From assembly GCA_017560225.1 (NCBI GenBank), contig JAFYOJ010000049.1, positions 1-45,546 of the forward strand: a stretch of 45,546 nucleotides of DNA, written 5' to 3'. The translations under genes and the position numbers were made by a program. This DNA is from Clostridia bacterium (GTDB lineage Bacteria > Bacillota > Clostridia > UBA1212 > UBA1255). The notes under the pieces are model-generated. The model ran no database searches. It was not told the origin of the DNA and worked only from the letters and a program-made list of their open reading frames with translations. Of the stretch, positions 1-39,901 are shown piece after piece. Every line of letters starts with the position of its first letter. Within the stretch, counting starts at the first letter, position 1.

Positions 1-245
1 ATCAAAGTCAAGCCACTTTCAAAGTTAAAGGGTTTTGCAGAACCTGCAAATACAAGTCCCGCATCGCCTACTGTAAAGAACAAAGCTCCGAAGAGGAGGG
101 CGATGATAAACACGCCCGCATCTCCAAGAGAAATACCCTTAATTGTAATTCTGCCTAAAGCATATCCAACCGCCAGAACAGCAAATACTACAAACAGCAA
201 CGTAGAAGTGTTGCTAATGGAAATAACACCGCCAAATAAACTCAT
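1..245 (-). CDS. N-terminal fragment (gene runs off the window start) of a YidE/YbjL/AspT-type permease, a putative organic-anion/C4-dicarboxylate or amino-acid exchanger family
   Basis: Not in the ORF track. My minus-strand translation from ATG 245..243 is MSLFGGVISISNTSTLLFVVFAVLAVGYALGRITIKGISLGDAGVFIIALLFGALFFTVGDAG... It has hydrophobic helices and a GRIxxxGISLG-type N-terminus as in YidE/YbjL. The ATG overlaps the TGA of the upstream flavoprotein gene (ATGA at 242..245). Confidence 0.5.
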   Translation of the reverse strand, partial: MSLFGGVISISNTSTLLFVVFAVLAVGYALGRITIKGISLGDAGVFIIALLFGALFFTVGDAGLVFAGSAKPFNFESGLTL

Positions 246-1888
246 AACTCAGTGTGCCCCCATGTATACTTGTCTGCCAACTTCGGATTGCCATGTGTGT
301 AAGAAGGAAGAAGCAACGGAGATTCAACCTTAGGCTCAACACCTGCATCTGCCATTTCCTTCGCAAACTTATCTACGTGAGACAATGTAAGTTTGCCCAA
401 CTTAACGCCCTTAGAATGAGCGGAAGCGTACTTACCTGCATTACGTCCGAATACGATAACGTCCAACAAAGAGTTACCCATCAAACGGTTACGGCCGTGA
501 ACACCGCCGGCAGCCTCACCGGCAACGTACAAGTTCGGAATGTTGGTAACACTTTCGTCGGTTACGTCCAAACCACCGTTCTGGTAGTGAAGCGTGGGGT
601 AAATCAAAATCGGAGTGGTACGCATATCGATACCGAACTTCTCGTACATACGAAGCATACCGGGAAGCTTCTTCTCGATGGTACCTGCACCGTGAATCAT
701 TTCGATCATCGGCGTATCCAACCAGATTGCAGCGCCCAAAGGAGTAGGAACGCCCTTGCCATTCTGCTTGCACTCACGAATGATAGAAGCAGCGGTTACG
801 TCACGAGTCTCCAACGGATTCATGAAAGCTTCACCGTCAACGTTAATAAGCTGAGCGCCCATAGAACGTACTTTCTCTGTAACCAATGCGCCCAACATCT
901 GTGCAGGGTAAGCAACACCGGTGGGGTGATACTGAATGGTATCTGCATAGAGAAGCTTAGCGCCTGCTCTGTAACCAAGTACCAAACCGTCTGCTGTTGC
1001 ACCGTAGTGGTTAGAAGTGGGGAAACCTTGGTAGTGAAGACGTCCTGCACCGCCGGTTGCGATGATAACAGTCTTTGCACGAGCGATCATCTGCTCGCCG
1101 GTTTCCATATTTTGGAGAACAGCACCGGCACACTGACCGTCTTCGTCCAAAACTAATTCGATTACAGAAGTGAAATCTACAACGGGAATACCACGGTTGA
1201 TTACTTCATCACGAAGTACACGCATGATTTCAGCACCGGAGTAGTCTGCACAAGCGTGCATTCTCTTTCTGGAAGTACCGCCACCGTGTGTGGTGTACAT
1301 GGTGCCGTCTTCTTCTTTATCAAACATAACGCCCAAGTTATTGAGCCACTGAATTGCTTCAGGTGCTTCCATAACCAATCTCTTCAAGAGCTCAGGCTTG
1401 TTGTAGTAGTGACCGCCGCCCAAAGCATCTAAGTAGTGGGTTACGGGAGAGTCGTTGGGCTTATCTGCAGCCTGAATACCACCCTCTGCCATCATGGTGT
1501 TAGCATCACCGATACGAAGCTTCGTAACGATCATGGTCTTTGCACCATTGTTATCAGACTCGATTGCAGCAGATGCACCTGCACCGCCACCACCGATAAT
1601 CAATACGTCTACGTCGTATGCGATATTGTCCAAATCAATATCTACGCCCAAGATACGGCTCTTACCTTGAAGCAGGTCAGCAAGCTCGCAGGGAACTTTC
1701 TCGCCTTTGTTGGGACCTACTGTCAATACGGAGAAGCCTTCGGACTTATAGTCAGGATGGAAATCGCTTAATACTTTCTGCTTCTCTTCTGCAGACATTC
1801 TGCGCAATTCCACGCCGATTCTGGATGCACGGCTGGCTTCAACCTTCTTGATGGAGTCCAGCATTTCTTGTGTCAAAACATTCGCCAT
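242..1888 (-). CDS. FAD-dependent flavoprotein of the SdhA/FrdA/NadB/AprA superfamily (fumarate-reductase-like catalytic subunit, probably non-covalent FAD)
   Basis: ORF 242..1918. I start it at MANVLTQEML (ATG 1888), which has GGGGAGG about 10 nt upstream. It carries the dinucleotide fold VLIIGGGGAGASAAIE, the motifs MMAEGGIQAA and IQYHPTG, and a C-terminal GEAAGGVHGRNRLMGNSLLD typical of the family. About 100 residues precede the FAD fold. Confidence 0.8.
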   Translation of the reverse strand: MANVLTQEMLDSIKKVEASRASRIGVELRRMSAEEKQKVLSDFHPDYKSEGFSVLTVGPNKGEKVPCELADLLQGKSRILGVDIDLDNIAYDVDVLIIGGGGAGASAAIESDNNGAKTMIVTKLRIGDANTMMAEGGIQAADKPNDSPVTHYLDALGGGHYYNKPELLKRLVMEAPEAIQWLNNLGVMFDKEEDGTMYTTHGGGTSRKRMHACADYSGAEIMRVLRDEVINRGIPVVDFTSVIELVLDEDGQCAGAVLQNMETGEQMIARAKTVIIATGGAGRLHYQGFPTSNHYGATADGLVLGYRAGAKLLYADTIQYHPTGVAYPAQMLGALVTEKVRSMGAQLINVDGEAFMNPLETRDVTAASIIRECKQNGKGVPTPLGAAIWLDTPMIEMIHGAGTIEKKLPGMLRMYEKFGIDMRTTPILIYPTLHYQNGGLDVTDESVTNIPNLYVAGEAAGGVHGRNRLMGNSLLDVIVFGRNAGKYASAHSKGVKLGKLTLSHVDKFAKEMADAGVEPKVESPLLLPSYTHGNPKLADKYTWGHTEL

Positions 1889-1907
1889 TTTACATGAACC
1901 TCCCCGA

Positions 1908-2582
1908 TTATTTCTCAATATCTCTGTGGTTATAGAGCTCTTTGATTTCTTCCAAAGGCTTGTTTGCCAGCGTTTCGATGAGCTGGTTGTACTCGCCGTT
2001 GATAATTTCCTGAACTCTGTTGTCTACGTGATCGCTGTGCGGCTGGATGTACTTACCGTTCAAACGGCGAGCCAAGAGCGATACCATAGAGTGGGTAATC
2101 TGTGCAGGACAACGAGATGCACACATGTTACAAGCGATACAGTCGAAAGATGCTTCTGCGCATTTCTCGTACTCTGCACGCTGTGCGTATGCAATGTACT
2201 GCATTACGTTGAGGCCCTGAGGACAAGCCTTGGTACAAGCGTTACAACCAATACAGCTGTAAATCTCAGGGTAGAGTTCCATCATGATGGTCTCTGTAGG
2301 CTTAATTGCCTCAATCTCATAACCCTTCTTCTGTCCGGGGAAGAAAGGAAGGCTTGCAATGTACATGTTCTCCTGTACTTTGGTCTGACAAGCAAGACAG
2401 AACTTAAGTTCGGTCTCACCTTTAATTCTGTAAATTGTTGCGCATGCGCCGCAGAAACCTGCACGGCAGCCGCAACCACGTTTATGTTGGTAGCCTGCGT
2501 ACTCCATAGCGTTCATAATCGTCAGGCTGGCCGGAACTTCATACATCTTACCGGCAATATAAATCTTTACCATATCCTCCAT
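1908..2582 (-). CDS. SdhB/FrdB-like iron-sulfur subunit (N-terminal 2Fe-2S ferredoxin-like domain plus two Cys-rich 4Fe-4S/3Fe-4S motifs)
   Basis: ORF 1908..2606. I start it at MEDMVKIYI (ATG 2582), with AAGGAGGA 9 nt upstream. Cys motifs are CGCRAGFCGACA, CIGCNACTKACPQG and CIACNMCASRCP. It lies directly upstream of the flavoprotein gene. Confidence 0.75.
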   Translation of the reverse strand: MEDMVKIYIAGKMYEVPASLTIMNAMEYAGYQHKRGCGCRAGFCGACATIYRIKGETELKFCLACQTKVQENMYIASLPFFPGQKKGYEIEAIKPTETIMMELYPEIYSCIGCNACTKACPQGLNVMQYIAYAQRAEYEKCAEASFDCIACNMCASRCPAQITHSMVSLLARRLNGKYIQPHSDHVDNRVQEIINGEYNQLIETLANKPLEEIKELYNHRDIEK

Positions 2583-2602
2583 TACTGTGTATCCTCCTTG
2601 CA

Positions 2603-3466
2603 TCAATACTCGTTAGGCAATTCGTCAATTTCGTCACAACGGAATACGGGACCGTCTTTACATACGTATTTAGATCCAATGTTGCAACGTCCGCATTTAC
2701 CGATACCGCACTTCATCTTAAGCTCCAGCGTGGTGTATACCTGGGTCTTATCAAAGCCCATTTCGATCAAAGCTTGCAATACGAACTTAATCATGATCGG
2801 TGGTCCGCAAATGATGGCGGTGCAGTTGGGTTCGAAAGCTAACTCTTTCAAGTAAGCCGGTACGAAGCCTACGTGGCCGTCCCATCCTTCTTGCGGGCGG
2901 TCGATGGTGATATATACGTTCATATCTTCCTCGCCGATCCACTCGTTCTTGATTTCATCGTAGTCTACCAAATCGTCTGCACTTCTGGATCCGTAGAGAA
3001 TATCCACGTGACCGTAGTCTTTCCGATTTGCGCGTACGTAGTTAATAACGGAGTGCAGCGGTGCTAAACCGATACCACCTGCGATAAAGAGCAAGTTCTT
3101 ACCCTTAAACTCTGTATCAACAGGGAACTGCTTTCCGTAAGGTCCGCGAACGCCGATCTGCTGACCAACTTCCATAGAGTGGAGCGCGTCAGTAAGTTCG
3201 CCGCAACGCTTAATACTGAATTCTTTGTATCCGGTAAGCGTAGGAGAAGAAGTGATGGAGAACATCGCCTCGCCTACACCGGGAAGTGTAACCATTGCAC
3301 ACTGACCGGGCATGTGATCGAACAATTTCTCTCCGTTCAATCCTTCTACACGGAACGTCTTAACATCCGGCGTATCCTGACGGATCGCGGTTACAACAGC
3401 AAGCTGAGGGATCAGCATATCTTTCTCCATACCATCATGGCAATGGCAGTTACAATTCTCACTCAT
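2603..3466 (-). CDS. FAD/NAD(P)H-binding oxidoreductase with C-terminal 2Fe-2S cluster (FlxA / AsrB / sulfhydrogenase-gamma / PyrK family)
   Basis: 287 aa. It shows a ferredoxin-reductase-type fold (RVEGLNGE..., LLFIAGGIGLAPL, GPPIM) and a C-terminal CGIGKCGRCNIG...C motif. Its start lies 1 nt after the stop of the upstream gene. Confidence 0.75.
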   Translation of the reverse strand: MSENCNCHCHDGMEKDMLIPQLAVVTAIRQDTPDVKTFRVEGLNGEKLFDHMPGQCAMVTLPGVGEAMFSITSSPTLTGYKEFSIKRCGELTDALHSMEVGQQIGVRGPYGKQFPVDTEFKGKNLLFIAGGIGLAPLHSVINYVRANRKDYGHVDILYGSRSADDLVDYDEIKNEWIGEEDMNVYITIDRPQEGWDGHVGFVPAYLKELAFEPNCTAIICGPPIMIKFVLQALIEMGFDKTQVYTTLELKMKCGIGKCGRCNIGSKYVCKDGPVFRCDEIDELPNEY

Positions 3467-3467
3467 C

Positions 3468-4493
3468 TTATGCTTCGCCTCCCAACTTCTTCATTACTTT
3501 TACGATATTCATAGAGATCGGACACTTCTGGAGACAGCGGCCACAACCGATGCAACCGAAAACGCCTTCATATCTGTCCGGATAGTACTTAAGCTTATGC
3601 ATAAACCGCTGACGGAAACGCTGTGTGTGGTCGGGGCGGTTGGTGCCGTGTGCCATCATGGTAAAATCGGAATACATACAAGAATCCCATACACGGAAAC
3701 GTTGAATTTCCTTGCCGGTGTTGTAATCCCGAACGTCGTAGCACTGGCAGGTAGGACATACGTATGTACAAGTTCCGCAACCCAAGCAACCGGAAGCCAG
3801 TTCCTTCCACTCAGGACGGTTGAACAACGTCAGCAAATCTACTTCTTTACCGAAACCAACGGTATTGAGTTCTGCCAAAGGCAACTTTGCAAGTACTTCT
3901 TTATTCTCAGCTTTTGCGCTGTCCGCTGCATTGTCATCGCAGTCAGCAAGCATAGAACCAAGGCTCTCCAAAAGCTTCTCACCCTTCTCGGTGTTAGCGC
4001 GCATGACCAGGTCATCCCCAGCAATCCAAGACTCTACGTCTCCGCCGGGAGCAGTGGAATCAATGCCGAATGCACCACAGAAGCAGGTTTCTTCAGGCGC
4101 CTTACACATTACAGAGAACACGGTACCGTGCTTTCTTCTGGAAGTGTAGTACGCATCCACAGGATCGTGGAGAAATACGCGATCAAGCACGTCAAAACCC
4201 TTCACGTCACAAGCGTGTACACCGAATACAACGAAATCTTCATCCTCGGGTGCAACGGGATCAATAGAAAGGTTCATGCCGTCTCTTTGGAAACGGATCA
4301 AATCCTCGCTCTGGGGGAAGAATACGCTCTTCGCACTCTTTACGGTGTGAAGCACATCGGGATTGTACTTCGTTCCCGGTGTCCACTCGCCGTAGTTATA
4401 CTGACCTGCAGTCTCTACAGGCATATACAACTTCTGGGTTGCTGCAATAGCCGCCAATAAATTATCAATTTGGGAAAATGCAATCTTCTTCAT
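3468..4493 (-). CDS. 4Fe-4S cluster protein, AsrA / sulfhydrogenase-beta / FlxB-like
   Basis: ORF 3468..4499 begins at a TTG. I prefer ATG 4493 (MKKIAFSQ), with GGGAGGGG upstream. Cys motifs are CLGCGTCTYVCPTCQC and CIGCGRCLQKCP. Confidence 0.7.
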   Translation of the reverse strand: MKKIAFSQIDNLLAAIAATQKLYMPVETAGQYNYGEWTPGTKYNPDVLHTVKSAKSVFFPQSEDLIRFQRDGMNLSIDPVAPEDEDFVVFGVHACDVKGFDVLDRVFLHDPVDAYYTSRRKHGTVFSVMCKAPEETCFCGAFGIDSTAPGGDVESWIAGDDLVMRANTEKGEKLLESLGSMLADCDDNAADSAKAENKEVLAKLPLAELNTVGFGKEVDLLTLFNRPEWKELASGCLGCGTCTYVCPTCQCYDVRDYNTGKEIQRFRVWDSCMYSDFTMMAHGTNRPDHTQRFRQRFMHKLKYYPDRYEGVFGCIGCGRCLQKCPISMNIVKVMKKLGGEA

Positions 4494-4495
4494 GA

Positions 4496-5488
4496 TCAAT
4501 TCCCCTCCCTATCGCTTACAATCTGAGGCTCCACGTCATCTTTTGTGAAGTTGATCAACGGACCTCTCTGTCCTGCGGTCTCACCTGCACTGTAGTCGCC
4601 GTAGAATTCATTAATATCCTTAATGTACTTACGGTTGAACAAGTGAAGGGGAATACCCTGGGGACAAACTCTGGTACACTCACCACAGTCGGTACAGCGG
4701 CCGGCTACGTGGAATGCACGGATAATGTGGAACATCTTCTCTTCGAAGCTGTCTGTGTTTGCCTTAGAAGCAATACCCGATGCGTTGTTATCGAATACGC
4801 ACTTGCGGCAAGAACAAGCAGGACAAGCATTTCGGCATGCATTACAACGAATACACTTGGAAAGTTCAGCCTTCCAGAAAGCAAAACGCTCCTCAGAAGT
4901 CATCGCTTCCAATGCACGAACGCCCTCAAAGCGATCGCCTGCAGCGCCTTCATCCTCATTCTCAGAGATCAATTCATCATAAATAACGTGTGCTTTACCC
5001 TTACAAGTTTCGCACTTATTTACAAGAACATCCTTCACAGCAACTTCCTTGTTTCCGTATACGGTCTCAACAGTCAAGATACCGTCCTTCTCGGAAGCTC
5101 CGGTAATACCCTTGATACCTTGTGCCTTCACACGCTCAATGTCAGCCATACCTTCGCAACCTACACCCAAGATGTATACGTTCTCACGAACGATTCTGTG
5201 CTCGGTCAAAAGCTGATTGAAGCTGTATGTATCACAGGGCTTGAGGAGTACCAATACCTTACCGGTCTGGCCCTCGGGAATTACGCTGTTCTTAATCATG
5301 TACTTGCTAAGGTTCGCAGCACAGAAAGAATCGTAAACCAATTCATCCAAAGACTCAACAGTCTCGAATACAAACGGTGTGCAGTCATAGAAGAATTCAC
5401 CCTTCTTCCAACCAACGACCTTCGTTACGGTACCGTCCGCCATCAATTCACGAACGCGGCTCAAAACTTTTGCGCTTACTCTTTGCAT
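4496..5488 (-). CDS. 4Fe-4S cluster protein, FlxC-like (second Fe-S subunit of the NAD(P)H module)
   Basis: 330 aa. Cys motifs are CETCKGK, CIRCNACRNACPACSCRKC and CTDCGECTRVCPQG. It overlaps the end of the mvhD-like gene by 13 nt. Confidence 0.7.
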   Translation of the reverse strand: MQRVSAKVLSRVRELMADGTVTKVVGWKKGEFFYDCTPFVFETVESLDELVYDSFCAANLSKYMIKNSVIPEGQTGKVLVLLKPCDTYSFNQLLTEHRIVRENVYILGVGCEGMADIERVKAQGIKGITGASEKDGILTVETVYGNKEVAVKDVLVNKCETCKGKAHVIYDELISENEDEGAAGDRFEGVRALEAMTSEERFAFWKAELSKCIRCNACRNACPACSCRKCVFDNNASGIASKANTDSFEEKMFHIIRAFHVAGRCTDCGECTRVCPQGIPLHLFNRKYIKDINEFYGDYSAGETAGQRGPLINFTKDDVEPQIVSDREGN

Positions 5489-5934
5489 CGAAGATCACCC
5501 ACCTTTACATTCTCGCCCAACTCATAAATCTTGGATACGAAATTATTCATAACTGTAGAGAACTTAACACCCTCTGCGGCAGAAACCCATTCAACACGGG
5601 TACGGCCCTTCTCCACGCCGATATAATCCAGCATGCTGAAGAGAAGTGTCATTCTTCTTCTTGTGTAGTAGTTACCGGTACTGTAGTGGCAGTCACCGGG
5701 GTGGCAACCGCAAAGGATTACGCCATCTGCGCCCTTCTCGAAGGCCCGTAAAATGAACATAGGGTTCACACGGCAGGAGCAAGGTACGCGGATAATCTTT
5801 ACGTCTGCGGGATATACCAAACGGGAAGAACCTGCAAGGTCAGCACCTGCGTAGCTACACCAGTTACAGCAAAACGCTACGATCTTCGGCTTCCACTCTT
5901 TCTTGATTTCCTGATTTGCTTCATTTATCGGCAT
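5476..5934 (-). CDS. mvhD: MvhD/FlxD-type hydrogenase iron-sulfur (delta) subunit
   Basis: ORF 5476..6015. I start it at MPINEANQ (ATG 5934), which overlaps the HdrA stop by 10 nt. It has the typical KIVAFCCNWCSYAGAD...CSCRVNP...CGCHPGDCHY pattern. Confidence 0.8.
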   Translation of the reverse strand: MPINEANQEIKKEWKPKIVAFCCNWCSYAGADLAGSSRLVYPADVKIIRVPCSCRVNPMFILRAFEKGADGVILCGCHPGDCHYSTGNYYTRRRMTLLFSMLDYIGVEKGRTRVEWVSAAEGVKFSTVMNNFVSKIYELGENVKVGDLRCKE

Positions 5935-7910
5935 ATTGCATCCACCTCCGCCATAATCTGTTTGTTGGAGAAGCCCTTCAAATCCATCGCGCCGGAAGGA
6001 CATACAACGGTACAAGCACCGCAGCCCTGACAGAGCGCTTCATTGACAACGCAAACTCTCCGAGTCTCTCTTACACCGTGGTCATTGATGAGCTTATCCT
6101 CATAACTGATCGCGCCGTAAGGACATACTTTCTCACAGCAAGAACATCCGTTACACAGAAGCTCATTGGAGTGAGATACGCAAGGATTGGTAAGAAGCTT
6201 ATCTTTTGCAAGAAGACCAATTACCTTCGCAGCCGCTGCGCCTGCTTGAGAAACGGTCTCGGGAATATCCTTAGGACCTTGGCACACACCGGACAGGAAG
6301 ATACCTGCCGTGGGGCTCTCTACAGGACGAAGCTTAGGATGGGCTTCTGTAATGAAGTCGTTGGTATCAATACTTGCTGTCAGCATAGAAGCAACTTTTC
6401 TTGCTGTAGGATCCGGCTCAATTGCAGTAGCAAGAACAACCATATCTGTATTCAGAATGATCTGCTCATTGGCAATCAAATCAACGCCCTGGACAACCAA
6501 GTGGCCGTCTTCTTCATAAACTTTACCAACTTGACCCTTGATGTAATCTACATCGTACTGTTCAACAGCACGGCGATAGAATTCGTCGAAGTTCTTACCC
6601 GGTGTACGTACGTCAATATAGAATACGTGTACTTCTACATCCGGATACTTATCACGAATCAGCATAGCGTGCTTTGCCGTGTACATACAACAAATCTTGG
6701 AGCAGTAGCACTTGCCTCTTCCGCTTACGTCACGGGAGCCCACACACTGAATAAAAGTAATGGACTTAGGATGTGTCTTGTCGGAAGGCTTCAAAAGAAC
6801 GCCGCCTGTGGGGCCTGCCGCATTCATCAAACGCTCTAACTCAAGAGAAGTCACAACGTCCGGGCAGGTAGAGTAAGAATACTCATCAAACTTAGATGCA
6901 TCAATGGGTTGGAAGCCGGTTGCCATAACGATTGCACCGTACTCTTCCTCAATGATCTCATCTTTCTGTGTATAGTCGATTGCGCCTGCGGTACAAACCT
7001 TCTCGCAAAGACCGCACTTGCCGGTCTTCAACTTCACGCACTGCTCAGGATCAATCACCGCAACGTTGGGAATTGCCTGTGCAAAAGGAATGTAAATAGC
7101 AGGGCGGTTATTGAGATTCATATTGAACTCATTCAAACCCTTCTTGGAAGGACACTTTGCCATACAAGCACCGCAACCGGTACAAATGTCGTCCTTTACG
7201 TAACGAGCTTTCTTGCGAATCTTTACGTGGAAGTTTCCTACGAAACCGCCGACAGACTCAACTTCGCTGTATGTATAGAGCTTAACCTTCTCATTAGCAG
7301 CAGCTTCTACCATCTTAGGGGTTAAAATACAAGCGGAACAGTCCAGCGTGGGGAACGTCTTATCGAGCTGAGCCATACGGCCACCGATAGTTGCGCGCTT
7401 CTCTACGATATCCACTTCAAAACCTGCATCGGCAATATCCAAAGCTGTCTGGATACCGGCAATACCACCGCCGATTACCAAAGCACGCTTGGTAACTTTG
7501 CTCTCGCCGGCCTTCAAAGGGCTATTGAGCAATACCTTTGCAACGGCGGCACGCATCAATACGCAAGCCTTCTCCGTACCCTCTTCCTTATCCTTGTGAA
7601 TCCAAGAACAGTGCTCACGGATATTGGCAATCTCAACCATGTAAGGATTCAGACCTGCGCGCTCCGCAGCCTTTCTGAATGTATTCTCGTGCATTCTGGG
7701 AGAACAAGAACAAACTACAACACCTGTGAGTTTGTGCTCTGCAATTGCATTTCTAATGATGCCTTGCCCCGCTTCAGAACACATATACTGATAATCTTGT
7801 GCAAATACAACATTGGGCTGAACCTTTGCCTCTGCCACAACGCGATCTACGTCAACAGTGGCTGCAATGTTACTTCCGCACCAGCAAACAAAAACTCCGA
7901 TTCTCTGCAA
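5925..7910 (-). CDS. hdrA: Heterodisulfide reductase subunit A (FAD, multiple 4Fe-4S)
   Basis: 661 aa. The N-terminus is IGVFVCWCGSNIA and the FAD fold is ALVIGGGIAGIQTALDIADAG. The HdrA signature CVGSRD...CYCSKICC is present. Ferredoxin motifs are CTGCGACMAKCP, CGLCEKVCTAGA, CNGCSCCEKVCPYGA and CQGCGACTVVCPSGA. Confidence 0.9.
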   Translation of the reverse strand: MQRIGVFVCWCGSNIAATVDVDRVVAEAKVQPNVVFAQDYQYMCSEAGQGIIRNAIAEHKLTGVVVCSCSPRMHENTFRKAAERAGLNPYMVEIANIREHCSWIHKDKEEGTEKACVLMRAAVAKVLLNSPLKAGESKVTKRALVIGGGIAGIQTALDIADAGFEVDIVEKRATIGGRMAQLDKTFPTLDCSACILTPKMVEAAANEKVKLYTYSEVESVGGFVGNFHVKIRKKARYVKDDICTGCGACMAKCPSKKGLNEFNMNLNNRPAIYIPFAQAIPNVAVIDPEQCVKLKTGKCGLCEKVCTAGAIDYTQKDEIIEEEYGAIVMATGFQPIDASKFDEYSYSTCPDVVTSLELERLMNAAGPTGGVLLKPSDKTHPKSITFIQCVGSRDVSGRGKCYCSKICCMYTAKHAMLIRDKYPDVEVHVFYIDVRTPGKNFDEFYRRAVEQYDVDYIKGQVGKVYEEDGHLVVQGVDLIANEQIILNTDMVVLATAIEPDPTARKVASMLTASIDTNDFITEAHPKLRPVESPTAGIFLSGVCQGPKDIPETVSQAGAAAAKVIGLLAKDKLLTNPCVSHSNELLCNGCSCCEKVCPYGAISYEDKLINDHGVRETRRVCVVNEALCQGCGACTVVCPSGAMDLKGFSNKQIMAEVDAICR

Positions 7911-7928
7911 AACTCAACACCACCTATC

Positions 7929-8330
7929 TTATTTTCTGTACTTACGGAATGCGCTGACCAAAGCCTGTTGAGGAATCTGGTCATCCACAATAGCCGGCAC
8001 ATCATCGGGAGAAAGGTAACACGTACCTTGTTGTCTCAATGCTGTTACACGAACAGCTTCGATGAGGTTTGCAGGCTCTACACCACGGGGACAACGCTGT
8101 ACACAAGCAAAACAAGTCAAGCACTTGGTGATGGACTTGCTTGCAAGCAAACGCTCTACGTCACCCTTTACAACCATGGAAACGAATTGATGAGGATGGT
8201 ACTCCATCTCGTCGAAAGAAGGACAAGATGCGGAGCACTTACCGCACTTCATACATTTCTTAGGATCGGTACCGCTCATGCGCGTAATTAAATTCGCTGT
8301 TTCTTTCTGATCAAAATGCATGGACGACAC
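7929..8330 (-). CDS. hdrC: Heterodisulfide reductase subunit C (2x4Fe-4S)
   Basis: 133 aa with CMKCGKCSASCP and CLTCFACVQRCP. It sits between hdrB and hdrA. Confidence 0.8.
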   Translation of the reverse strand: MSSMHFDQKETANLITRMSGTDPKKCMKCGKCSASCPSFDEMEYHPHQFVSMVVKGDVERLLASKSITKCLTCFACVQRCPRGVEPANLIEAVRVTALRQQGTCYLSPDDVPAIVDDQIPQQALVSAFRKYRK

Positions 8331-8334
8331 CTCC

Positions 8335-9117
8335 TTATTTCAAGCCCAAAGCTTCTGCAAGAAGCTCGGTAATATATGTAACCGGAACGGCATCTGCACC
8401 TGCATTTGCCTGCAAATTGTACAAGCAAAGCGGACAAGCGGTGATCAGTTCTTCAGCACCCTTATCCTTGGCACTGTGCATAATCTTCGCAACGCGCTTC
8501 TTAGCAAGATCCGCATCCTTTACGGTTACGTAGCCGCCACAGCATTCATTGCGCATAGGATATACAACAGCTTCTGCACCCAACGCCTTGATAAATTCTT
8601 CGATAATGGTCGGGTTCTCCGGATCATCAAAAGCCATCTCTTTCGCAGGACGCAAAATCATACATCCGTAGTAAGCGCCGATCTTACGACCCTTCAAAGG
8701 ATTTACAACTTTCTTTGCCAACTCATCAAAGCCCACGCACTCTTTGAGCATCTGCAAATAGTGCAATACGCGGGTCTCCCCTGCATAGGGCACAGCAGGC
8801 TGCAAATAGTTGTTTGCCTTGGTGCGAATATTGTCGTTGCCGGCCATATCGTTATTGACACGGGTCAATACGTGATGACAAGCAGAGCAAAGCGTTACTA
8901 AAGCCTGTCCCTTGTCCCGTGCCGCCATCAAGGTGCGGACAGAAGACAAACGGGTTGCAATCTCATCTTGCGCAAGGGGATATACGGCGCCGCAACACTG
9001 CCACTCTTCAATTTCTTCCAGTGTAATACCGAGCGCCTCTGCACAAAGACGGCCATAGTGGTCTAAGTCTTTTGCTTTGGTTTTCAGTGTACACCCGGGA
9101 TAATAACTGTACGTCAT
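8335..9117 (-). CDS. hdrB: Heterodisulfide reductase subunit B (two CCG domains)
   Basis: 260 aa starting YYPGCTL. The CCG motifs are EEWQCCGA and NECCGGY, with additional CSACHH and ACPLC. Confidence 0.85.
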   Translation of the reverse strand: MTYSYYPGCTLKTKAKDLDHYGRLCAEALGITLEEIEEWQCCGAVYPLAQDEIATRLSSVRTLMAARDKGQALVTLCSACHHVLTRVNNDMAGNDNIRTKANNYLQPAVPYAGETRVLHYLQMLKECVGFDELAKKVVNPLKGRKIGAYYGCMILRPAKEMAFDDPENPTIIEEFIKALGAEAVVYPMRNECCGGYVTVKDADLAKKRVAKIMHSAKDKGAEELITACPLCLYNLQANAGADAVPVTYITELLAEALGLK

Positions 9118-9137
9118 TTCCGTTCTCTCCTTTAAAA

Positions 9138-10085
9138 TTAAATAGTAATTTGACTAATTACGCCCTTCAAAACTTCTGCACTGTGCTGAAGTTTACCAAT
9201 TTCGCTACCGGTCAAGTTGGGAAGTAAGTTTCCGCAAACACCTTCAGAACCAACAATGAACGGAATGCTCAAACATACGTCTTCAATGCCGTACTCGCCG
9301 TGCATCATATTAGATACAGTCATCGCAGTCTTAACGCTGCCCAACAAACACTTTACTACGTGGCATACAGAAATAGATACTGCGTAGAAAGTAGCACCCT
9401 TACGTGCAATAATCTGTCCGCCGGAAGTACGCATGTATTGCTCGATTTCATCGGTATCCAACTGAGGGAACTTCTCATTGGTGTATTGGAAGTTATTTCT
9501 GTAATCCATCAAGTTTACACAACCAACCTGCGCACAAGACCACGGAACGAAAGAGCTGTCACCGTGTTCACCAAGTACGTATGCGTGAATGTTCTTCTCG
9601 CTGATACCGATATACTCACCGATTCTGGAACGAAGTCTGGAAGTATCCAAGATAGTACCGGAACCGATAATTCTGTGCTCCGGAATGCCGGAAACTTTCA
9701 TAAATACGTAAGTGAGAATGTCTACCGGGTTACTTACCAGAATATAAATTGCGTTAGGCGCATATTTCACAATTTGAGGTGCAATTTGCTTAATAACATT
9801 TACATTCGTCTGCGCAAGATCAATTCTGGACTGGCCGGCTTTTCTCGGAATACCGGAAGTAATAATAACAATATCGGAATCCTTCGCATCACTATATGTG
9901 CCTGCGTAAATTTTTGCAGAAGAGCTAAAAGGCATACCTTGACGAATATCCATTGCCTCGCCCTTTGCCTTCTCTTCATTGATGTCAATCAATACAATTT
10001 CAGAAGCAATCGCTTCTACTGCCATTGTGTACGTAATAGTGGAACCAACACTGCCGGCACCAATAACCGTAATCTTTCTACCCAT
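9138..10085 (-). CDS. NAD-dependent L-2-hydroxyacid dehydrogenase of the LDH/MDH family (Arg at the substrate-discriminating position, possibly malate dehydrogenase)
   Basis: ORF 9138..10139. I start it at MGRKITVIGAGSVGS (ATG 10085). Motifs are DTSRLRS and LGEHGDSSFVPWS (LDH-like catalytic His). The loop SGIPRKAGQSRIDL has Arg where LDHs have Gln. It lies 20 nt upstream of hdrB on the same strand. Confidence 0.8.
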   Translation of the reverse strand: MGRKITVIGAGSVGSTITYTMAVEAIASEIVLIDINEEKAKGEAMDIRQGMPFSSSAKIYAGTYSDAKDSDIVIITSGIPRKAGQSRIDLAQTNVNVIKQIAPQIVKYAPNAIYILVSNPVDILTYVFMKVSGIPEHRIIGSGTILDTSRLRSRIGEYIGISEKNIHAYVLGEHGDSSFVPWSCAQVGCVNLMDYRNNFQYTNEKFPQLDTDEIEQYMRTSGGQIIARKGATFYAVSISVCHVVKCLLGSVKTAMTVSNMMHGEYGIEDVCLSIPFIVGSEGVCGNLLPNLTGSEIGKLQHSAEVLKGVISQITI

Positions 10086-10176
10086 AAATTCTGCACCTCT
10101 TTCAAAATATTTAATAATATGGTTTACAGCGTGAAACAAAACCCGGGGGTAAGCACAATTCTCCGAGTTTGTAAAT

Positions 10177-10204
10177 ATTATAGCATACAGGGGGTAAAAA
10201 TCAA
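10177..10204 (-). promoter_or_regulatory. Predicted sigma-A promoter for the dehydrogenase-hdr-flx-frd operon
   Basis: The minus strand reads TTGATT (10204..10199), a 16-nt spacer ending in TGc, then TATAAT (10182..10177). This is about 90 nt upstream of ATG 10085. Confidence 0.45.
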
Positions 10205-10236
10205 GTGGTTTATTCTTCCGGAAATGTTAAAAAACA

Positions 10237-10265
10237 TTGTATTTTTGCGGGCAAAGGTATATAAT
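10237..10265 (+). promoter_or_regulatory. Predicted sigma-A promoter for ddl-murI
   Basis: TTGTAT (10237..10242), a 17-nt spacer, then TATAAT (10260..10265). This is about 38 nt upstream of ATG 10303. Confidence 0.45.
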
Positions 10266-10302
10266 GATAAGCGTGATTTTTCCCATGGGAGGATATAGAT
10301 TT

Positions 10303-11376: not shown

Positions 11377-12196
11377 TAACAGACCCATCGGTATTTTTGA
11401 TTCCGGTTTAGGCGGTCTTACGGTTTTGAAAGCCGTGCAAGAGTTACTGCCCAACGAGTCTTTGGTTTATTTCGGCGACAGCGGCAGAACGCCTTACGGC
11501 ACCAAGTCCCCGGAAACCGTGCAGAAGTACACCTTCCAGGATATCAATTTTCTTCTGGAGCATCAGGTTAAAATGATTGTAATTGCCTGCAATACAGCAA
11601 GCGCTTGCAGTTTGGATGCGGTATTGAAACAGTACACCCTGCCTATTGTGGAAGTGGTGGGCCCCGGCTCCAGAGCAGCCGTGCGCACCTCCAAAAAGGG
11701 GCAGATCGGCGTCATTGGGACTCCGGCCACTATTGCATCCGGCGTATATGAGCGTGCCATCCAAGCCGCCACCGCCAGATTGACACCGGACCGTGCTTCC
11801 ACGTATTACGGGAAGGCGTGTCCTTTGTTTGTGCCATTGGTGGAAGAAGGTTGGTGGGACCGAGAAGTAACCGCGCTTACGGTGCAGGAATACATGAAGC
11901 CTTTGCAAGATGCCGGCGTAGATACGGTGGTATTGGGCTGCACCCATTATCCTTTGTTGCAGTCTGCCATTCAGAAAGAGATGGGACCCGAGGTAACTTT
12001 AGTAAACTCGGCATTGGAAGTAGCAAGAGAAGTACAAGCCGTACTCACAGAACGAGACATTGCTACCGGCGAAGGCGGTCAAGGAAGTGTTTCTTTCTTC
12101 ACCAGTGACAGTGTGGAGAAATTCGCCGAACTAGGCAGCATTTTCCTGGGGAAAAGATTAGAAAACGTTACGAAGATTGACATCGAGGCGCGATAA
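11369..12196 (+). CDS. murI: Glutamate racemase
   Basis: ORF 11330..12196. I start it at MSDNRPIGIFDSGLGGLTV, overlapping the ddl stop by 8 nt. Motifs are VIACNTAS and VLGCTHYPLL. Confidence 0.9.
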   Translation: MSDNRPIGIFDSGLGGLTVLKAVQELLPNESLVYFGDSGRTPYGTKSPETVQKYTFQDINFLLEHQVKMIVIACNTASACSLDAVLKQYTLPIVEVVGPGSRAAVRTSKKGQIGVIGTPATIASGVYERAIQAATARLTPDRASTYYGKACPLFVPLVEEGWWDREVTALTVQEYMKPLQDAGVDTVVLGCTHYPLLQSAIQKEMGPEVTLVNSALEVAREVQAVLTERDIATGEGGQGSVSFFTSDSVEKFAELGSIFLGKRLENVTKIDIEAR

Positions 12197-13733
12197 GGCG
12201 CTTAATGATCCGTGCGATGCTCACCCAACCCGATATACCCACAATAATAAAGAACGGGCCAAATGCAAACAAATAACGGGCTCGTGCTTCAAATAAAGTC
12301 AAGAAAATGGTGATGCCAATCAACGTAAGAGGCACCACCAATGTTGGCGTGAATTTTTTGCGTTTCAAAAAATACAATCCGCTTCCCACGGATCCCACCA
12401 GTAAAATCAACCAAATCCATTGTTGCAAGTGCAAGAAAAGGGTATGGTATTGCCCATTTCTGTAATAAATATCTTTCAAAAAAGGAGACAACGTCTCATT
12501 TCGGTCTTCGAACATCGTGTTGTAGAAAGTCCCCTCTCCACTCCATGCGTACGCACCATCCCCATAGTTAATCAGTACCTTCCGGGCATACTGTCTGGAA
12601 ACACCCTCGACACCCAGCATTTCCAGGCGCGCACGAATCATTCGCTTATTCGCCTCTTTTCGACGTTCCACCGTATAGTATGAATTAGAAAAATCCACGT
12701 CTGCATCCGAATATCCCCCCTGCGTATCCGGATTTAGTCCCATCATAAAATAATGTTCCATGCCAAATTCCGATTTCTCGCTATAGATAAAGGGGAGAGA
12801 CGGCAAAATCAGCTGTGTGAAAAGCAACATGACCAGCAGGCCGCTAACGCCACAGGCAATTCCTTTCTGTATAAAGGATACAACTTCTTTCTTATGTATA
12901 TTGAAGCAAAAACGAACTAGCTCAACCAGAACAATAGCAATAAACACAATGGCAATTTGCGGTTTTGTTTTGTAGCCGAGATAGGACAAGCAACCAATGC
13001 CGGCCCATTTTACCCACACAAATTTACCGTTTTGTGCCAATTGGTAAAGGCGTACCAAGACAACAGGAAAGCAAAGCACCAAGCCATCTGAATATAAGAT
13101 CATCAGCCAAGGGCTCAACCCAATGTGGACCGCATAGACAAACCAAGCAAAAAGGGCAACTTGGACATTCGTCAGTTCTCTTACCACTTGATATAACAAG
13201 TAGCCACATAGACAAGATAACATACATTGAAACGCCACAACCGCAAAACCATCCCACGCACCAAGTCCCAACCAAGACATCCCGCGAAAAACAACACTAT
13301 AGAACCACACCAATAAAAAATTATTGGGATACCGTCCAAAATACCAGGCGGTGAATCCTTCTTCTCCCGCGGCGATTCTCCGTGCAATCGACACAATATA
13401 TCCAGAATCCCAACCGGTTTCAAAGTAAATATTATAAAATATAATCAGTTGCAACAAAAACAATCCAGCGGTAAAAATCCAAATAGTATACCAAGGCAAT
13501 CGTTCTGCAAAATGGTCAATTTTCTGTCGATATCGAATATACAGCAAAATCCCCACCGCCATCACCAGGACGCCCAACAGAAGAATGGCCCAGTAAGGAA
13601 GTGCAAACACACGTTTGCCGTTGTAGGAAACGCTGCCGGAGAAACCAATCACAATCAACAAAATTAAACCGGCCAATACAGACCAGCTCACGGCGATGCC
13701 ATTATACGCGAATTTTTCCAATCGGTTCTTCAT
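12168..13733 (-). CDS. Polytopic membrane protein, GT-C-fold glycosyltransferase-like (ArnT/PMT-type), tentative
   Basis: ORF 12168..13760. I start it at MKNRLEKF (ATG 13733), with AAGGAG 7 nt upstream. It has at least 10 predicted hydrophobic helices and a soluble segment near the C-terminal third. The family call rests on architecture only. Confidence 0.4.
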   Translation of the reverse strand: MKNRLEKFAYNGIAVSWSVLAGLILLIVIGFSGSVSYNGKRVFALPYWAILLLGVLVMAVGILLYIRYRQKIDHFAERLPWYTIWIFTAGLFLLQLIIFYNIYFETGWDSGYIVSIARRIAAGEEGFTAWYFGRYPNNFLLVWFYSVVFRGMSWLGLGAWDGFAVVAFQCMLSCLCGYLLYQVVRELTNVQVALFAWFVYAVHIGLSPWLMILYSDGLVLCFPVVLVRLYQLAQNGKFVWVKWAGIGCLSYLGYKTKPQIAIVFIAIVLVELVRFCFNIHKKEVVSFIQKGIACGVSGLLVMLLFTQLILPSLPFIYSEKSEFGMEHYFMMGLNPDTQGGYSDADVDFSNSYYTVERRKEANKRMIRARLEMLGVEGVSRQYARKVLINYGDGAYAWSGEGTFYNTMFEDRNETLSPFLKDIYYRNGQYHTLFLHLQQWIWLILLVGSVGSGLYFLKRKKFTPTLVVPLTLIGITIFLTLFEARARYLFAFGPFFIIVGISGWVSIARIIKRLIAPRCQSS

Positions 13734-13737
13734 TGTC

Positions 13738-15576
13738 TTACTCCTTGTGAAAATGCCCATAAACGATCTCTGCTATTTTCTGTCCGAACCCTTGCACTTG
13801 CATGAAGTCCTCCACAGAGGCTTCCCGGATTTTTGCAATACTGCCGAAATGACGAAGCAAATCCAGTTTCCGTTTGTCCCCTAATCCTTTAATTTCATCC
13901 AGCGCCGTGCGGCGATACCGTTTGGAAGTAAGTTTCCGATTATAGGAAACAGCCACACGGTGGGTTTCATTCTGCACCGCCGTAACCAGCCGCCAAATCC
14001 CGGGATCATCTTTCAAAATAAATTCCCGATATTGTCCATCCACCTCGCCAAGCAACGCACGGGAACGATGGCGATCATCTTTCACCATGCCTAACATGGG
14101 AATATTCAAATTCATTTTACCCAGCACGCCGGCCACCGCACTCATCTGCCCCAAGCCGCCGTCAATCAACAGTAAATCCGGCAACACCTCAAATCCTTTG
14201 CTCCCCTCTTGATACCGAGCAAAACGTCTTGTAAGCGTCTCCGCCATAGAGTCCGTGTCGCTTTGAGCCGTGACCTGCTTCATCTTAAACAAACGGTACT
14301 CACTCTTAGCCGGCTTGCCGCCTACAAATACCACCATGGAAGCATTGATTTCGCTGTCGCCTAAATTGGAAATGTCATAGGATTCAATCCGTTCCGGAAG
14401 TTTCGGCAAGTCGTAAATTTCTTGCAGCCGGGCAAGGGTTCTGTATTCCCCGTCGCCGGCGGCGCCGGTAACCATCGACTTCTCTCGATTCAGCAGGGCA
14501 ATCTCGGCATTTTCCCGGACCAAATCACAAATCTTCCGTTTGTCCCCTCGCTGCGGGTGTACAATTTCGCACTTCCGCCCCCGAAGCTGCGTGAGCCAAC
14601 CGGAGAGGGCCTCGCCTTCCATGCTTTCGCTTACGTACACTTTGGGCGGCACGTACTGATGTTCGTTGTAAAATTGTTGGATAAATGCGGTCAAAATCTC
14701 CTCAGGCGCTTCTTCCCCGGCACCTTCAAAGATAAAATACTCTCTGCCCAGGACTTTTCCGCCCCGGACGAAGAAAATTTGCACGCAGGCATCCACTTGA
14801 TTCCGAGCGACAGCCACCGCGTCGAAGTCATCTTCGGAAAGCAAGGATATTTTCTGTTTCTCCTGGAGGCGCTCCAAAGCTTTCAGTCGCTCCCGATAAG
14901 CTGCCGCCAATTCAAATTCCAAGCGGGATGCTGCATCTTCCATCATCCGGCGTAATTCCCCGGCTACTGCCTCTTGTTTGCCGGAGAGGAAGTCCAGCAC
15001 TTGATCTACCAAGATCTTGTATTCCTTCTCGGGAATCTTGCCGCAACAAGCGCCGCGACACAGGCCGATGTGGTAGTTGAGGCAAGGGCGGTCATTGGTT
15101 TTCTCGGTGATTCGCTTCTTGCAAGGGCGCAAAGGTAAAATATTCTTTATTGCTTCCAATGTCTGCTGCACGGTCCATCCGCTGAAATAGGGGCCGAAGT
15201 ATTTTGCCCCGTCTTTCTCAATCTTTCTTGCCAGCATCACTCTGGGAAACCGTTCCTGGACGGTGACTTTGATATACGGAAAGCCTTTGTCGTCTTTTAA
15301 GAGTACGTTATATTTGGGTTTATATTTCTTAATGAGGTTGTTTTCTAATAGGAGGGCCTCATATTCGCTGTCGCAAACGATGTATTCGAAATGGTGAATC
15401 TTGGAAATCATCACCGTGATTCTTTGGCTATGAGGAATATTTTGGAAATAAGAGCGCAAACGATTCTTAAGGACTACGGCTTTGCCTACGTAAAGGACAC
15501 CGTCTTCCTCGTCTCGCATAAGATATACGCCGGGTTTCTCCGGGACTTTGGAAAGTTCTTCTTTAAATCGTTCCAT
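13738..15576 (-). CDS. uvrC: Excinuclease ABC subunit C
   Basis: 612 aa. It has the GIY-YIG N-terminus (PGVYLMRDEEDGVLYVGKA...LKNRLRSYF), the UvrBC-interaction region, and a C-terminal RNase-H-like plus HhH region (LDEIKGLGDKRKLDLLRHFGS). Confidence 0.95.
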   Translation of the reverse strand: MERFKEELSKVPEKPGVYLMRDEEDGVLYVGKAVVLKNRLRSYFQNIPHSQRITVMISKIHHFEYIVCDSEYEALLLENNLIKKYKPKYNVLLKDDKGFPYIKVTVQERFPRVMLARKIEKDGAKYFGPYFSGWTVQQTLEAIKNILPLRPCKKRITEKTNDRPCLNYHIGLCRGACCGKIPEKEYKILVDQVLDFLSGKQEAVAGELRRMMEDAASRLEFELAAAYRERLKALERLQEKQKISLLSEDDFDAVAVARNQVDACVQIFFVRGGKVLGREYFIFEGAGEEAPEEILTAFIQQFYNEHQYVPPKVYVSESMEGEALSGWLTQLRGRKCEIVHPQRGDKRKICDLVRENAEIALLNREKSMVTGAAGDGEYRTLARLQEIYDLPKLPERIESYDISNLGDSEINASMVVFVGGKPAKSEYRLFKMKQVTAQSDTDSMAETLTRRFARYQEGSKGFEVLPDLLLIDGGLGQMSAVAGVLGKMNLNIPMLGMVKDDRHRSRALLGEVDGQYREFILKDDPGIWRLVTAVQNETHRVAVSYNRKLTSKRYRRTALDEIKGLGDKRKLDLLRHFGSIAKIREASVEDFMQVQGFGQKIAEIVYGHFHKE

Positions 15577-15865: not shown

Positions 15866-15940
15866 TGGTGACCCCTACGAGAATCGAACTCGTGTCGCCG
15901 CCGTGAAAGGGCGATGTCTTAACCTCTTGACCAAGGGGCC
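15866..15940 (-). tRNA. tRNA-Glu (anticodon UUC)
   Basis: The reverse complement is GGCCCCTTGGTCAAGAGGTTAAGACATCGCCCTTTCACGGCGGCGACACGAGTTCGATTCTCGTAGGGGTCACCA. It folds as a cloverleaf with anticodon loop CTTTCAC, a GTTCGATTC T-loop and an encoded CCA. Confidence 0.9.
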
Positions 15941-15943
15941 TTA

Positions 15944-16020
15944 TGGTAGCGGTAGTGGGATTTGAACCTACGACCTGCCGGGTATGAACCGGACGCTCTG
16001 GCCAGCTGAGCTATACCGCC
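15944..16020 (-). tRNA. tRNA with CAU anticodon (elongator Met type; Ile2-lysidine not excluded)
   Basis: The reverse complement is GGCGGTATAGCTCAGCTGGCCAGAGCGTCCGGTTCATACCCGGCAGGTCGTAGGTTCAAATCCCACTACCGCTACCA. It resembles Firmicute elongator tRNA-Met as I remember it. There is one A-C mismatch in the T-stem. Confidence 0.8.
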
Positions 16021-39890: not shown

Positions 39891-39901
39891 CCTGCCACCT
39901 C

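Follow-up and report, generated by a model that had tools for sequence, protein, structure and literature searches.

A predicted succinate operon, widely conserved in gut Clostridia, joins Flx-Hdr genes to a fumarate reductase-like pair

Which acceptor takes the electrons of an Flx-Hdr complex whose genes are joined to those of a fumarate reductase-like flavoprotein? The question is raised by one end of a 45,546-nucleotide stretch of DNA from a Clostridia bacterium (contig JAFYOJ010000049.1, assembly GCA_017560225.1; the whole stretch is called the window), in which the six-frame listing of open reading frames (ORFs) shows an unbroken minus-strand gene run from 10139 to the window start. We propose, with a probability of roughly 0.6, that this run is most of a ~13-gene 'succinate operon' for the reductive C4 branch, whose products would form an NADH:fumarate reductase that co-reduces ferredoxin via Flx-Hdr. 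The gene content and order, their conservation, the cofactor motifs, the substrate-binding residues and the pathway context were all observed directly.

One promoter and eleven tightly packed genes occupy window 1-10204 on the minus strand. Starts were picked via ribosome-binding sites and the N-termini of homologues; lengths are in amino acids (aa).

10177..10204, minus strand: sigma-70-type promoter, TTGATT, 16-nt spacer, TG-extended TATAAT, 10/12 match
9138..10085, minus strand: dehydrogenase of the lactate/malate dehydrogenase (LDH/MDH) family, 315 aa, predicted malate dehydrogenase (Ldh_1_N and Ldh_1_C)
8335..9117, minus strand: HdrB, 260 aa, two complete CCG domains (PF02754 twice)
7929..8321, minus strand: HdrC, 130 aa, 2x[4Fe-4S] (Fer4_8, Fer4_17)
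5925..7910, minus strand: HdrA, 661 aa, FAD and Fe-S, presumed bifurcating flavoprotein (NF040770, HdrA2)
5476..5934, minus strand: MvhD/FlxD, 152 aa (PF02662, FlpD, 5e-53)
4496..5488, minus strand: FlxC-like Fe-S protein, 330 aa (Fer4 dicluster domain)
3468..4493, minus strand: FlxB-like Fe-S protein, 341 aa (Fer4_22)
2603..3466, minus strand: FlxA-like FAD/NAD(P)H-binding [2Fe-2S] protein, 287 aa (FAD_binding_6, NAD_binding_1, DHODB_Fe-S_bind)
1908..2582, minus strand: FrdB-like Fe-S subunit, 224 aa, N-terminal 2Fe-2S-type domain and HdrC/SdhB-type 2x[4Fe-4S] domain
242..1888, minus strand: FrdA-like flavoprotein, 548 aa, predicted non-covalent-FAD fumarate reductase (PF00890)
1..245, minus strand: AAEx (Asp-Al_Ex) permease, first 81 codons (from the translation)

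An earlier sequence-only reading of this DNA had described a minus-strand operon in the order mdh-like, hdrB, hdrC, hdrA, mvhD, flxC, flxB, flxA, frdB-like, frdA-like and permease (of which only the start lies in the window). Strand and order agree with the ORF listing and translations, and the 548-aa flavoprotein with the start chosen at 1888. The computed spacers, in gene order, are +20, +13, +18, -10, -13, +2, +1, +20, +19 and -4 nt, exactly the range from a 13-nt overlap to a 20-nt gap given in that reading; the mvhD start overlaps hdrA by 10 nt, and the permease start overlaps the frdA stop as ATGA. All the cysteine motifs that had been named could be read in the translations, namely CVGSRD...CSKICC in HdrA, QCCG and ECCG in HdrB, CCNWCSYAG in MvhD, CLGCGTCTYVCPTCQC in FlxB and CGIGKCGRC in FlxA, and the domain assignments were recovered with Pfam and NCBIfam.

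The number of genes had to be revised. A flavoprotein (P0001) 98% identical to that of the window was found on two contigs of metagenome-assembled genomes (MAGs), L081 and L082, which match the window DNA at 88% identity for 6.6-11.9 kb; the upstream ddl and racemase genes, too, are common to L081 and the window. Downstream of frdA both contigs encode a 419-420-aa Asp-Al_Ex (AAEx) permease and then the alpha and beta subunits of a class I fumarate hydratase, fumA and fumB (PF05681, 3e-120, and PF05683, 2e-59). Judged from this order in the two relatives, the window edge cuts the operon and the full unit comprises ~13 genes; instead of the ten genes first counted, eleven lie in the window. The permease belongs to the Asp-Al_Ex family: the full-length 419-aa orthologue in L081 matches PF06826 (1.3e-51) over two Asp-Al_Ex stretches. 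Only an 81-residue fragment of the permease is inside the window.

The whole run may well be transcribed from the one promoter upstream. TTGATT-16-TATAAT with its extended -10 TG is the sole 10/12 promoter match in the region and is identical in L081, which bears out the single promoter of the sequence-only reading. Promoter-like sites in the region were not enriched (8 found against 14.2 expected in shuffled sequence), and terminator-like matches stood at chance level (11 found against 10.0 expected), those on the operon strand all falling within coding sequence. Internal promoters and terminators, being at or below chance frequency, were rejected, in line with the earlier claim that internal terminators are lacking. 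The 19-20-nt gaps before frdB and frdA leave no room for a separate promoter of the frdAB-like genes, which would have spoken against a link with Hdr and Flx. The divergent mdh/ddl intergenic region (window 10086-10300 against L081 1570-1830) is 95% identical, compared with ~88% in coding DNA, and therefore appears to be under constraint as a whole, beyond the promoter hexamers. In the leader (window 10133-10166, minus strand) a U-run comes after a weak hairpin, AAACUCGG-16 nt-CCGGGUUU, whose stem is retained in L081 while the loop differs. Folding of the leader was no better than that of shuffles (z +0.9 and +1.3) and no Rfam match was obtained for it, so a regulatory RNA element between promoter and mdh was dropped.

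The arrangement is far from peculiar to the window. In a genome scan with one genome per species, at least 574 species-representative genomes carried a relative of the flavoprotein, to which more than 8000 protein clusters are related. Among the 80 best species-representative loci, with 70-77% flavoprotein identity, the nine-gene core hdrBCA-mvhD-flxCBA-frdBA is collinear in 58; in the remaining 22 it is contig ends alone that break the run, and no locus shows a conflicting order. Co-occurrence across Clostridia had been proposed as a check on the association, and it held throughout: frdB and frdA never part from hdr and flx in these 80 species-level loci. The holders are Clostridia of gut and rumen, with Christensenella minuta, C. 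tenuis, [Clostridium] leptum and Solibaculum mannosilyticum among the cultured ones. On the evidence of these genomes the operon is real and very widely conserved among gut Clostridia.

What would the products do? The flavoprotein looks like a fumarate reductase. It has the FAD_binding_2 fold with a capping domain (PF00890, 1.9e-73), and H321 (HPTG), T337/E338, R362 (ETRD), H434 and R468 fall on the residues with which SdhA/FrdA (1nek, 7d6v) bind the dicarboxylate and transfer protons; the catalytic Arg and His residues whose lack would have told against the assignment are thus present as His/Arg/His/Arg in the alignment to both SdhA structures. Across 31 aligned sequences, with identities as low as 30%, R362, H434 and R468 never vary, and H321 and E338 are at least 90% conserved; T337 lies outside the conserved columns, with the LVTEK motif present in all 82 locus copies. 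Of the full-length copies from the 82 loci, all have the motifs bearing the six catalytic residues, save one that lacks LETRD. The covalent-FAD histidine of complex II is replaced by Asn130 (GDANT) in 82 of 82 copies, and the position equivalent to FrdA Glu49 is a Glu (MAEGG), as in the fumarate-reductase type. Covalent FAD is needed for efficient succinate oxidation, and non-covalent FAD is typical of enzymes working only in the fumarate-reducing direction.

Model scores and structure agree on the family. The best NCBIfam models are TfrA (343 bits, cut-off 718), sdhA_frdA (279, cut-off 567) and NadB (271), no curated family cut-off of NCBIfam being reached; outside the family, the closest 50%-cluster representatives are SdhA-type proteins and TfrA proteins, one of the latter passing the TfrA cut-off. 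The placement that the sequence-only reading had called for is therefore among the fumarate reductases and succinate dehydrogenases, closest to TfrA and SdhA. Placement with NadB, urocanate reductase, flavocytochrome c or AprA was rejected on model scores and outgroup labels. An AlphaFold (AF2) model was confident (predicted local distance difference test, pLDDT, 93.6; predicted template modelling score, pTM, 0.92), and its best PDB match by Foldseek was Escherichia coli FrdA, 1kf6_A (E 5e-36, template modelling score 0.69). No Pfam match to the C-terminal helical domain PF02910 was found in the FrdA-like protein, whose chain stops ~80 residues past the FAD domain, and a conserved, confidently modelled 90-aa extension containing HPDY...GPNKGEKVP precedes it at the N-terminus. 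On these two features the protein is a distinct subfamily.

The FrdB-like protein measures 221-233 aa, 224 in most copies, and is always encoded directly upstream of frdA. Its cysteines C39-x4-C44-x2-C47...C62 (224-aa numbering) are invariant or near-invariant, its N-domain matches Fer2_4 and Fer2 just over the gathering scores, and the N-terminus of TfrB is in register with it (E 1.3e-10), a weak but consistent match for a 2Fe-2S domain. The dicluster domain at its C-terminus belongs to the HdrC/SdhB helical type (hhalign to the window HdrC, probability 92%). Both of the protein's CxxCxxCxxxCP motifs are of the 4Fe type, and no 3Fe site is therefore predicted. It scores under the curated cut-offs (TIGR00384, 28.6 against 88), and sequence and profile searches of the PDB gave generic 2x[4Fe-4S] ferredoxin matches only, with no recognisable SdhB/FrdB. 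The label 'FrdB-like' of the sequence-only reading thus stands for the architecture and fails for membership of the SdhB/FrdB family. Foldseek matches of the model (E of 0.09 or above, mostly HdrC and carbon monoxide dehydrogenase ferredoxin domains) were not used as evidence. A natural FrdB-FrdA fusion of 727 aa (P0122) was found at 5250-7433 of contig L085, with no hdr or flx genes upstream and the contig end just downstream. The invariant adjacency and this fusion argue that the FrdB-like protein functions with FrdA.

The substrate is suggested by the company the genes keep. Flanks were counted in 42 loci with enough sequence on both sides, and a fumarase is present in 40 of them: class II fumC immediately upstream of hdrB in 19, class I fumAB downstream of frdA in 21. 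In 14 loci fumC sits between the mdh-like gene and hdrB. FumC passes the class II fumarase equivalog TIGR00979 (723 bits, cut-off 665) and fails the aspA equivalog (447 against 681). As read from these loci, two unrelated fumarase classes are independent recruits to the same operon, which would be hard to explain unless fumarate is an intermediate. The dehydrogenase gene occurs in 26 and the AAEx permease in 27 of the 42 loci.

On score the dehydrogenase clears the L-LDH cut-offs. Arg at position 102, where L-LDHs have Gln, goes with oxaloacetate/malate specificity according to the classical Gln102Arg rule, and Arg81 of the dehydrogenase (GIPRKAGQSR) aligns to the Gln102 position of the L-LDH 4m1q (AGAAQKPGETR); the pattern SG..RK.GQ[ST]R was matched in all but two operon-linked copies. 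Under this rule the first gene product is predicted to be an LDH-like malate dehydrogenase, and lactate dehydrogenase function was rejected on the Arg102 rule and the fumarase context, despite the L-LDH cut-offs passed. Its closest solved relative is PDB 1y6j, the Clostridium thermocellum 'L-lactate dehydrogenase'; this too has Arg at the Gln102 position in the alignment (AGANRKPGETR) and may be a mis-named malate dehydrogenase. The malate-specifying Arg, the fumarase in nearly every complete locus and the Asp-Al_Ex permease strengthen the earlier idea that dehydrogenase and permease supply and export C4 substrates. Fumarate is the likely substrate on three independent lines, the pathway context, the dehydrogenase, and the residues and family of the flavoprotein.

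The same data bear on a different substrate. The flavoprotein might be an L-aspartate oxidase or dehydrogenase, or a reductase of another unsaturated acid, with Flx-Hdr as its redox partner: it reaches no curated cut-off and scores with NadB models only slightly under TfrA/SdhA, the AAEx permease family includes aspartate:alanine exchangers, and FumC also passes an aspartate ammonia-lyase subfamily model (513 against 510 bits). We consider this very improbable, given the two unrelated fumarases and the Arg-type malate dehydrogenase recruited to the operon, the equivalog scores of FumC for fumarase and against aspA, an Fe-S partner subunit typical of Frd/Sdh and not of NadB, outgroup clusters that are nearest to TfrA and SdhA, and a neighbourhood with no nadA or nadC.

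Direction can be weighed on the same genes. Flavin-based bifurcating enzymes are reversible in principle, and Hdr/Flox confurcation has been suggested for Syntrophobacter; succinate and reduced ferredoxin might then be oxidised and NAD+ reduced by confurcation, in succinate-consuming bacteria. Against such reverse operation stand the asparagine in place of the covalent-FAD histidine in all copies, the fumarate-reductase-type Glu of MAEGG and a malate dehydrogenase and fumarase context like that of a succinate producer, and it seems to us extremely improbable.

The electrons for fumarate would come from the seven remaining genes. HdrB matches methanogen HdrB (8rvv_B, E 8e-35), and all ten cysteines of its CCG domains are present (9, 41, 42, 77 and 80; 152, 192, 193, 228 and 231). 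HdrC is found by TIGR03290 at E 1.4e-17, under the curated cut-off. HdrA scores 798 bits over positions 1-640 of the HdrA2 profile NF040770, MvhD matches the C-terminal part of that profile, and together they span the model. In the PDB, FlxC is most closely related to the C-terminal part of the FdhB of Fdh-Hdr complexes (7bkb_E, 2e-24), and FlxB is recognised by sulfhydrogenase beta-subunit and AsrA models and by 9nez_B (4e-44). FlxA has PF00970, PF00175 and PF10418 and matches hydrogenase gamma-subunit and AsrB models; a Cys/His-rich stretch, MSENCNCHCHDG, was noticed at its N-terminus (window 3431-3466, minus strand). With the FlxA domains, FlxB, FlxC and FlxD beside hdrABC on one strand, and the HdrB and HdrA motifs, the cluster is of the FlxABCD-HdrABC type.

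How might such a module reach a fumarate reductase? FrdB, FlxC, HdrC and HdrB of the window match successive segments of the single-chain TfrB model, and HdrB scores equally on the HdrB model and on that of SdhE, the CCG 'anchor' of type E fumarate reductases. These two matches provide a precedent for CCG proteins wired to Frd-type Fe-S subunits. The main rival to such wiring is a thiol shuttle, in which Flx-Hdr would reduce a disulfide while bifurcating to ferredoxin and a separate TfrAB-like FrdBA, a thiol:fumarate reductase, would re-oxidise the thiols, so that a soluble cofactor alone couples the two. An HdrB that is a clear homologue of the methanogen protein with both CCG motifs complete would fit it, as would TfrA as top curated model for FrdA, and a paper on Pseudoclostridium thermosuccinogenes has Flx-Hdr passing electrons to 'ferredoxin (and thiols)' (PMC7282089). 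The thiol-oxidising part of TfrB, however, is its fused CCG region, and no CCG domain (PF02754) was found in any of the 78 copies examined of the FrdB-like protein (224 aa here). Moreover, the operon encodes one CCG protein only and no conserved thiol-carrier or cofactor-biosynthesis gene. For these reasons the shuttle is disfavoured, and we hold it distinctly unlikely.

In the bifurcating scheme that we prefer, the LDH-like malate dehydrogenase would convert oxaloacetate to malate, the fumarase (encoded in the nearest relatives just past the window edge) malate to fumarate, and a soluble two-subunit module of FrdB-like and FrdA-like proteins fumarate to succinate, while the AAEx permease would serve succinate export or C4 acid exchange. 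The FrdBA module, without a membrane anchor and without a quinone site, would be fed with electrons by the co-encoded FlxABC-MvhD-HdrABC complex. FlxA would oxidise NAD(P)H, and the electrons would pass via FlxB, FlxC and MvhD to the FAD of HdrA, where the pair would be split. One electron would climb to ferredoxin by way of the HdrA ferredoxin domains; the other would run downhill, through HdrC, the two CCG clusters of HdrB, FrdB and the non-covalent FAD of FrdA, to fumarate. The net reaction would be 2 NADH + fumarate + oxidised ferredoxin -> 2 NAD+ + succinate + reduced ferredoxin. Calculated from textbook E0' values (-320 mV for NADH, +33 mV for fumarate and -420 mV for ferredoxin) this bifurcation yields ~-49 kJ/mol, or ~-33 kJ/mol with ferredoxin at -500 mV.

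We infer a physical complex, direct HdrB-to-FrdB wiring, the use of NADH over NADPH and the co-reduction of ferredoxin. A more specific version, to which we give somewhat less than even odds, is a single soluble complex of ~11 subunits in which the HdrB CCG clusters would be an electron relay into a split-TfrB-like FrdB/FrdA and not a disulfide-reducing site. It would constitute a thiol-free, HdrA-based bifurcating NADH:fumarate/ferredoxin oxidoreductase, widespread in gut Clostridia including Christensenella, with FrdBA as a portable acceptor cassette on at least three donor modules (Flx-Hdr; Hdr beside 2-oxoacid:ferredoxin oxidoreductase; NuoF-like).

More distant relatives show FrdBA with those other partners, in keeping with a portable module. 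At 55% identity, a single contig (L086, 811-9771) has the genes of a 2-oxoacid:ferredoxin oxidoreductase (delta, alpha, beta, gamma) followed by hdrA-mvhD-hdrC-hdrB-frdB-frdA, and flx genes are absent; ferredoxin reduced in the course of fumarate reduction could there possibly feed reductive carboxylation of succinyl-CoA. At 47% identity, with the N-terminal extension kept (L083/L084, 9366-12891), frdB-frdA is followed by a NuoF-like NADH/FMN/4Fe-4S protein, an arrangement that may be a simple soluble NADH:fumarate reductase; the contig also encodes c-type cytochrome-domain proteins and a UbiA-family prenyltransferase. Two further loci (L087 and L088) have the frdB-frdA pair alone.

That a simple NADH-linked version appears to exist, divergent FrdBA standing beside a single NuoF-like NADH module, speaks for a non-bifurcating NAD(P)H:fumarate reductase in the window as well, in which Flx-Hdr would be a mere wire from NAD(P)H or reduced ferredoxin to FrdBA with no energetic coupling; bifurcation by bacterial Flx-Hdr is itself only proposed. 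Yet seven extra subunits are strictly conserved with FrdBA, among them an HdrA that has ferredoxin domains and the full set of Fe-S motifs, ~68 kJ/mol would by calculation be lost in a plain wire, and the physiology of P. thermosuccinogenes is consistent with ferredoxin reduction (PMC7282089). On balance a plain wire is unlikely.

The proposal of fumarate reduction coupled to ferredoxin also has several points against it. HdrB keeps both complete CCG motifs, so its disulfide-reducing site may still be functional. The dicarboxylate-binding residues of the FrdA-like protein are the same in NadB. The FrdB-like subunit is not recognisable as SdhB/FrdB by score, and its AlphaFold model is poor (pLDDT 61.7, below 50 in the Cys-rich N-domain). 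The FrdBA module would not itself require Hdr, as it occurs with a NuoF-like partner or with no visible partner. The fumarase genes of this operon, beyond the window edge, are deduced from its relatives. Finally, the match in architecture to the operon of P. thermosuccinogenes comes from the description in the paper.

That earlier system anticipates the coupling idea, which reportedly goes back to a 2019 preprint of Koendjbiharie and van Kranenburg. The P. thermosuccinogenes 'succinate operon' encodes a fumarate hydratase, Flx-Hdr (seven genes), a fumarate reductase (two genes) and a putative succinate transporter; it was up-regulated ~four-fold as a unit, and its authors put forward a coupling of succinate formation to the reduction of ferredoxin (PMC7282089). 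L081 and L082 likewise combine a fumarase and a transporter with the seven Flx-Hdr and two Frd genes, and 40 of the 42 complete loci have a fumarase. The window differs in lineage, its nearest relatives being gut Oscillospiraceae/Ruminococcaceae MAGs, in the malate dehydrogenase gene at the head of its operon, and in the class I fumAB at the tail in its relatives, where P. thermosuccinogenes has one fumarase gene at the head. In a 2024 bioRxiv preprint, STRING links Firmicutes HdrA, including that of Ruminococcus champanellensis, to Sdh/Frd flavoproteins, which is called unusual. Literature searches for other descriptions gave only PMC7282089 and this incidental STRING observation. The coupling suggested by the sequence-only reading had therefore already been published as a hypothesis; its remark that no such complex was known to have been characterised stands, in that literature searches found no biochemical characterisation.

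Other known systems resemble the operon in part. The FlxABCD-HdrABC complex of Desulfovibrio vulgaris, reportedly the work of Ramos et al. in 2015, has all seven kinds of subunit seen here (one FAD/NAD [2Fe-2S] protein, a pair of Fe-S proteins, MvhD and the three Hdr proteins A, B and C). The gene order here is hdrBCA-flxDCBA, however, and where a disulfide, DsrC, is the proposed acceptor in D. vulgaris, an FrdBA module is attached here and no DsrC-like gene is present. Methanothermobacter TfrAB is close in that TfrA is the nearest curated model, passed by a neighbouring cluster representative, and in that FrdB, HdrC and HdrB follow the segments of TfrB; it differs from our FrdA in score (343 bits against 718), in the C-terminal domain that FrdA lacks and in the absence of the 90-aa N-terminal extension, and from our FrdB-like protein in its CCG domain, CCG being contributed here by the separate HdrB of an HdrABC set. 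The methanogen MvhAGD-HdrABC and Fdh-Hdr complexes (5odc, 7bkb, 8rvv) have homologous HdrA, HdrB, HdrC and MvhD, and FlxC resembles the docking part of FdhB. The donor here, in contrast, is a sulfhydrogenase-beta/gamma-like NAD(P)H module, and the presumed acceptor is fumarate via FrdBA, not CoM-S-S-CoB.

With E. coli FrdABCD (1kf6) the flavoprotein shares its fold and catalytic residues. Membrane anchors, quinone site, covalent-FAD histidine (Asn130 here) and C-terminal helical domain are all absent, and the Fe-S subunit has two CxxCxxCxxxCP motifs instead of a 4Fe and a 3Fe site. Bcd-EtfAB and the caffeyl-CoA reductase CarCDE, for which PMC5861303 is a review, are functional analogues: in them NADH-driven C=C reduction at ~0 mV pays for ferredoxin reduction. 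The logic proposed here would be the same; the proteins are unrelated, the flavin being Etf-based there and HdrA-based here.

Elsewhere in the window, a minus-strand stretch at 38166-45288 encodes two large proteins (625 and 888 aa) with an N-terminal camelysin/Peptidase_M73-like segment, one of them also with a pectate-lyase-like adhesive domain, followed by four small ORFs that have no Pfam match; it may be a TasA/camelysin-type surface fibre cluster. Four long ORFs had no Pfam match at E <= 1e-5: 12168-13760 (minus strand, 530 aa), 21180-22877 (minus, 565 aa), 22769-24187 (minus, 472 aa) and 30619-32793 (plus, 724 aa). Three tRNA genes, at 15869-16020 (minus) and 25069-25157 (plus), were the sole Rfam matches in the window.

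The operon is thus of a kind already described, though uncharacterised biochemically, and the coupling idea was published for P. thermosuccinogenes. To this our analysis adds the full extent of the operon, the malate dehydrogenase call, the two fumarase classes, the breadth in gut Clostridia, the subfamily features of FrdA and the modular FrdBA. The genes are currently annotated as 'FAD-binding protein', '4Fe-4S ferredoxin' and 'L-lactate dehydrogenase', names that hide the pathway. The operon suggests that in many Clostridia fumarate, via a dedicated FrdBA, is the acceptor of Flx-Hdr, and so bears on where Flx-Hdr complexes physiologically deliver their electrons in organisms other than methanogens and sulfate reducers. 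Should the complex bifurcate, making succinate would supply Rnf or hydrogenases with reduced ferredoxin and give bacteria that lack quinones a means of energy conservation; the ~11-subunit complex, if it exists, would in effect be 'fumarate respiration without quinones'. Since some of the holders, for instance Christensenella minuta and [Clostridium] leptum, are gut species that can be cultivated, the hypothesis is testable in available strains, and it would be relevant to redox balance and to succinate and hydrogen fluxes in gut communities.

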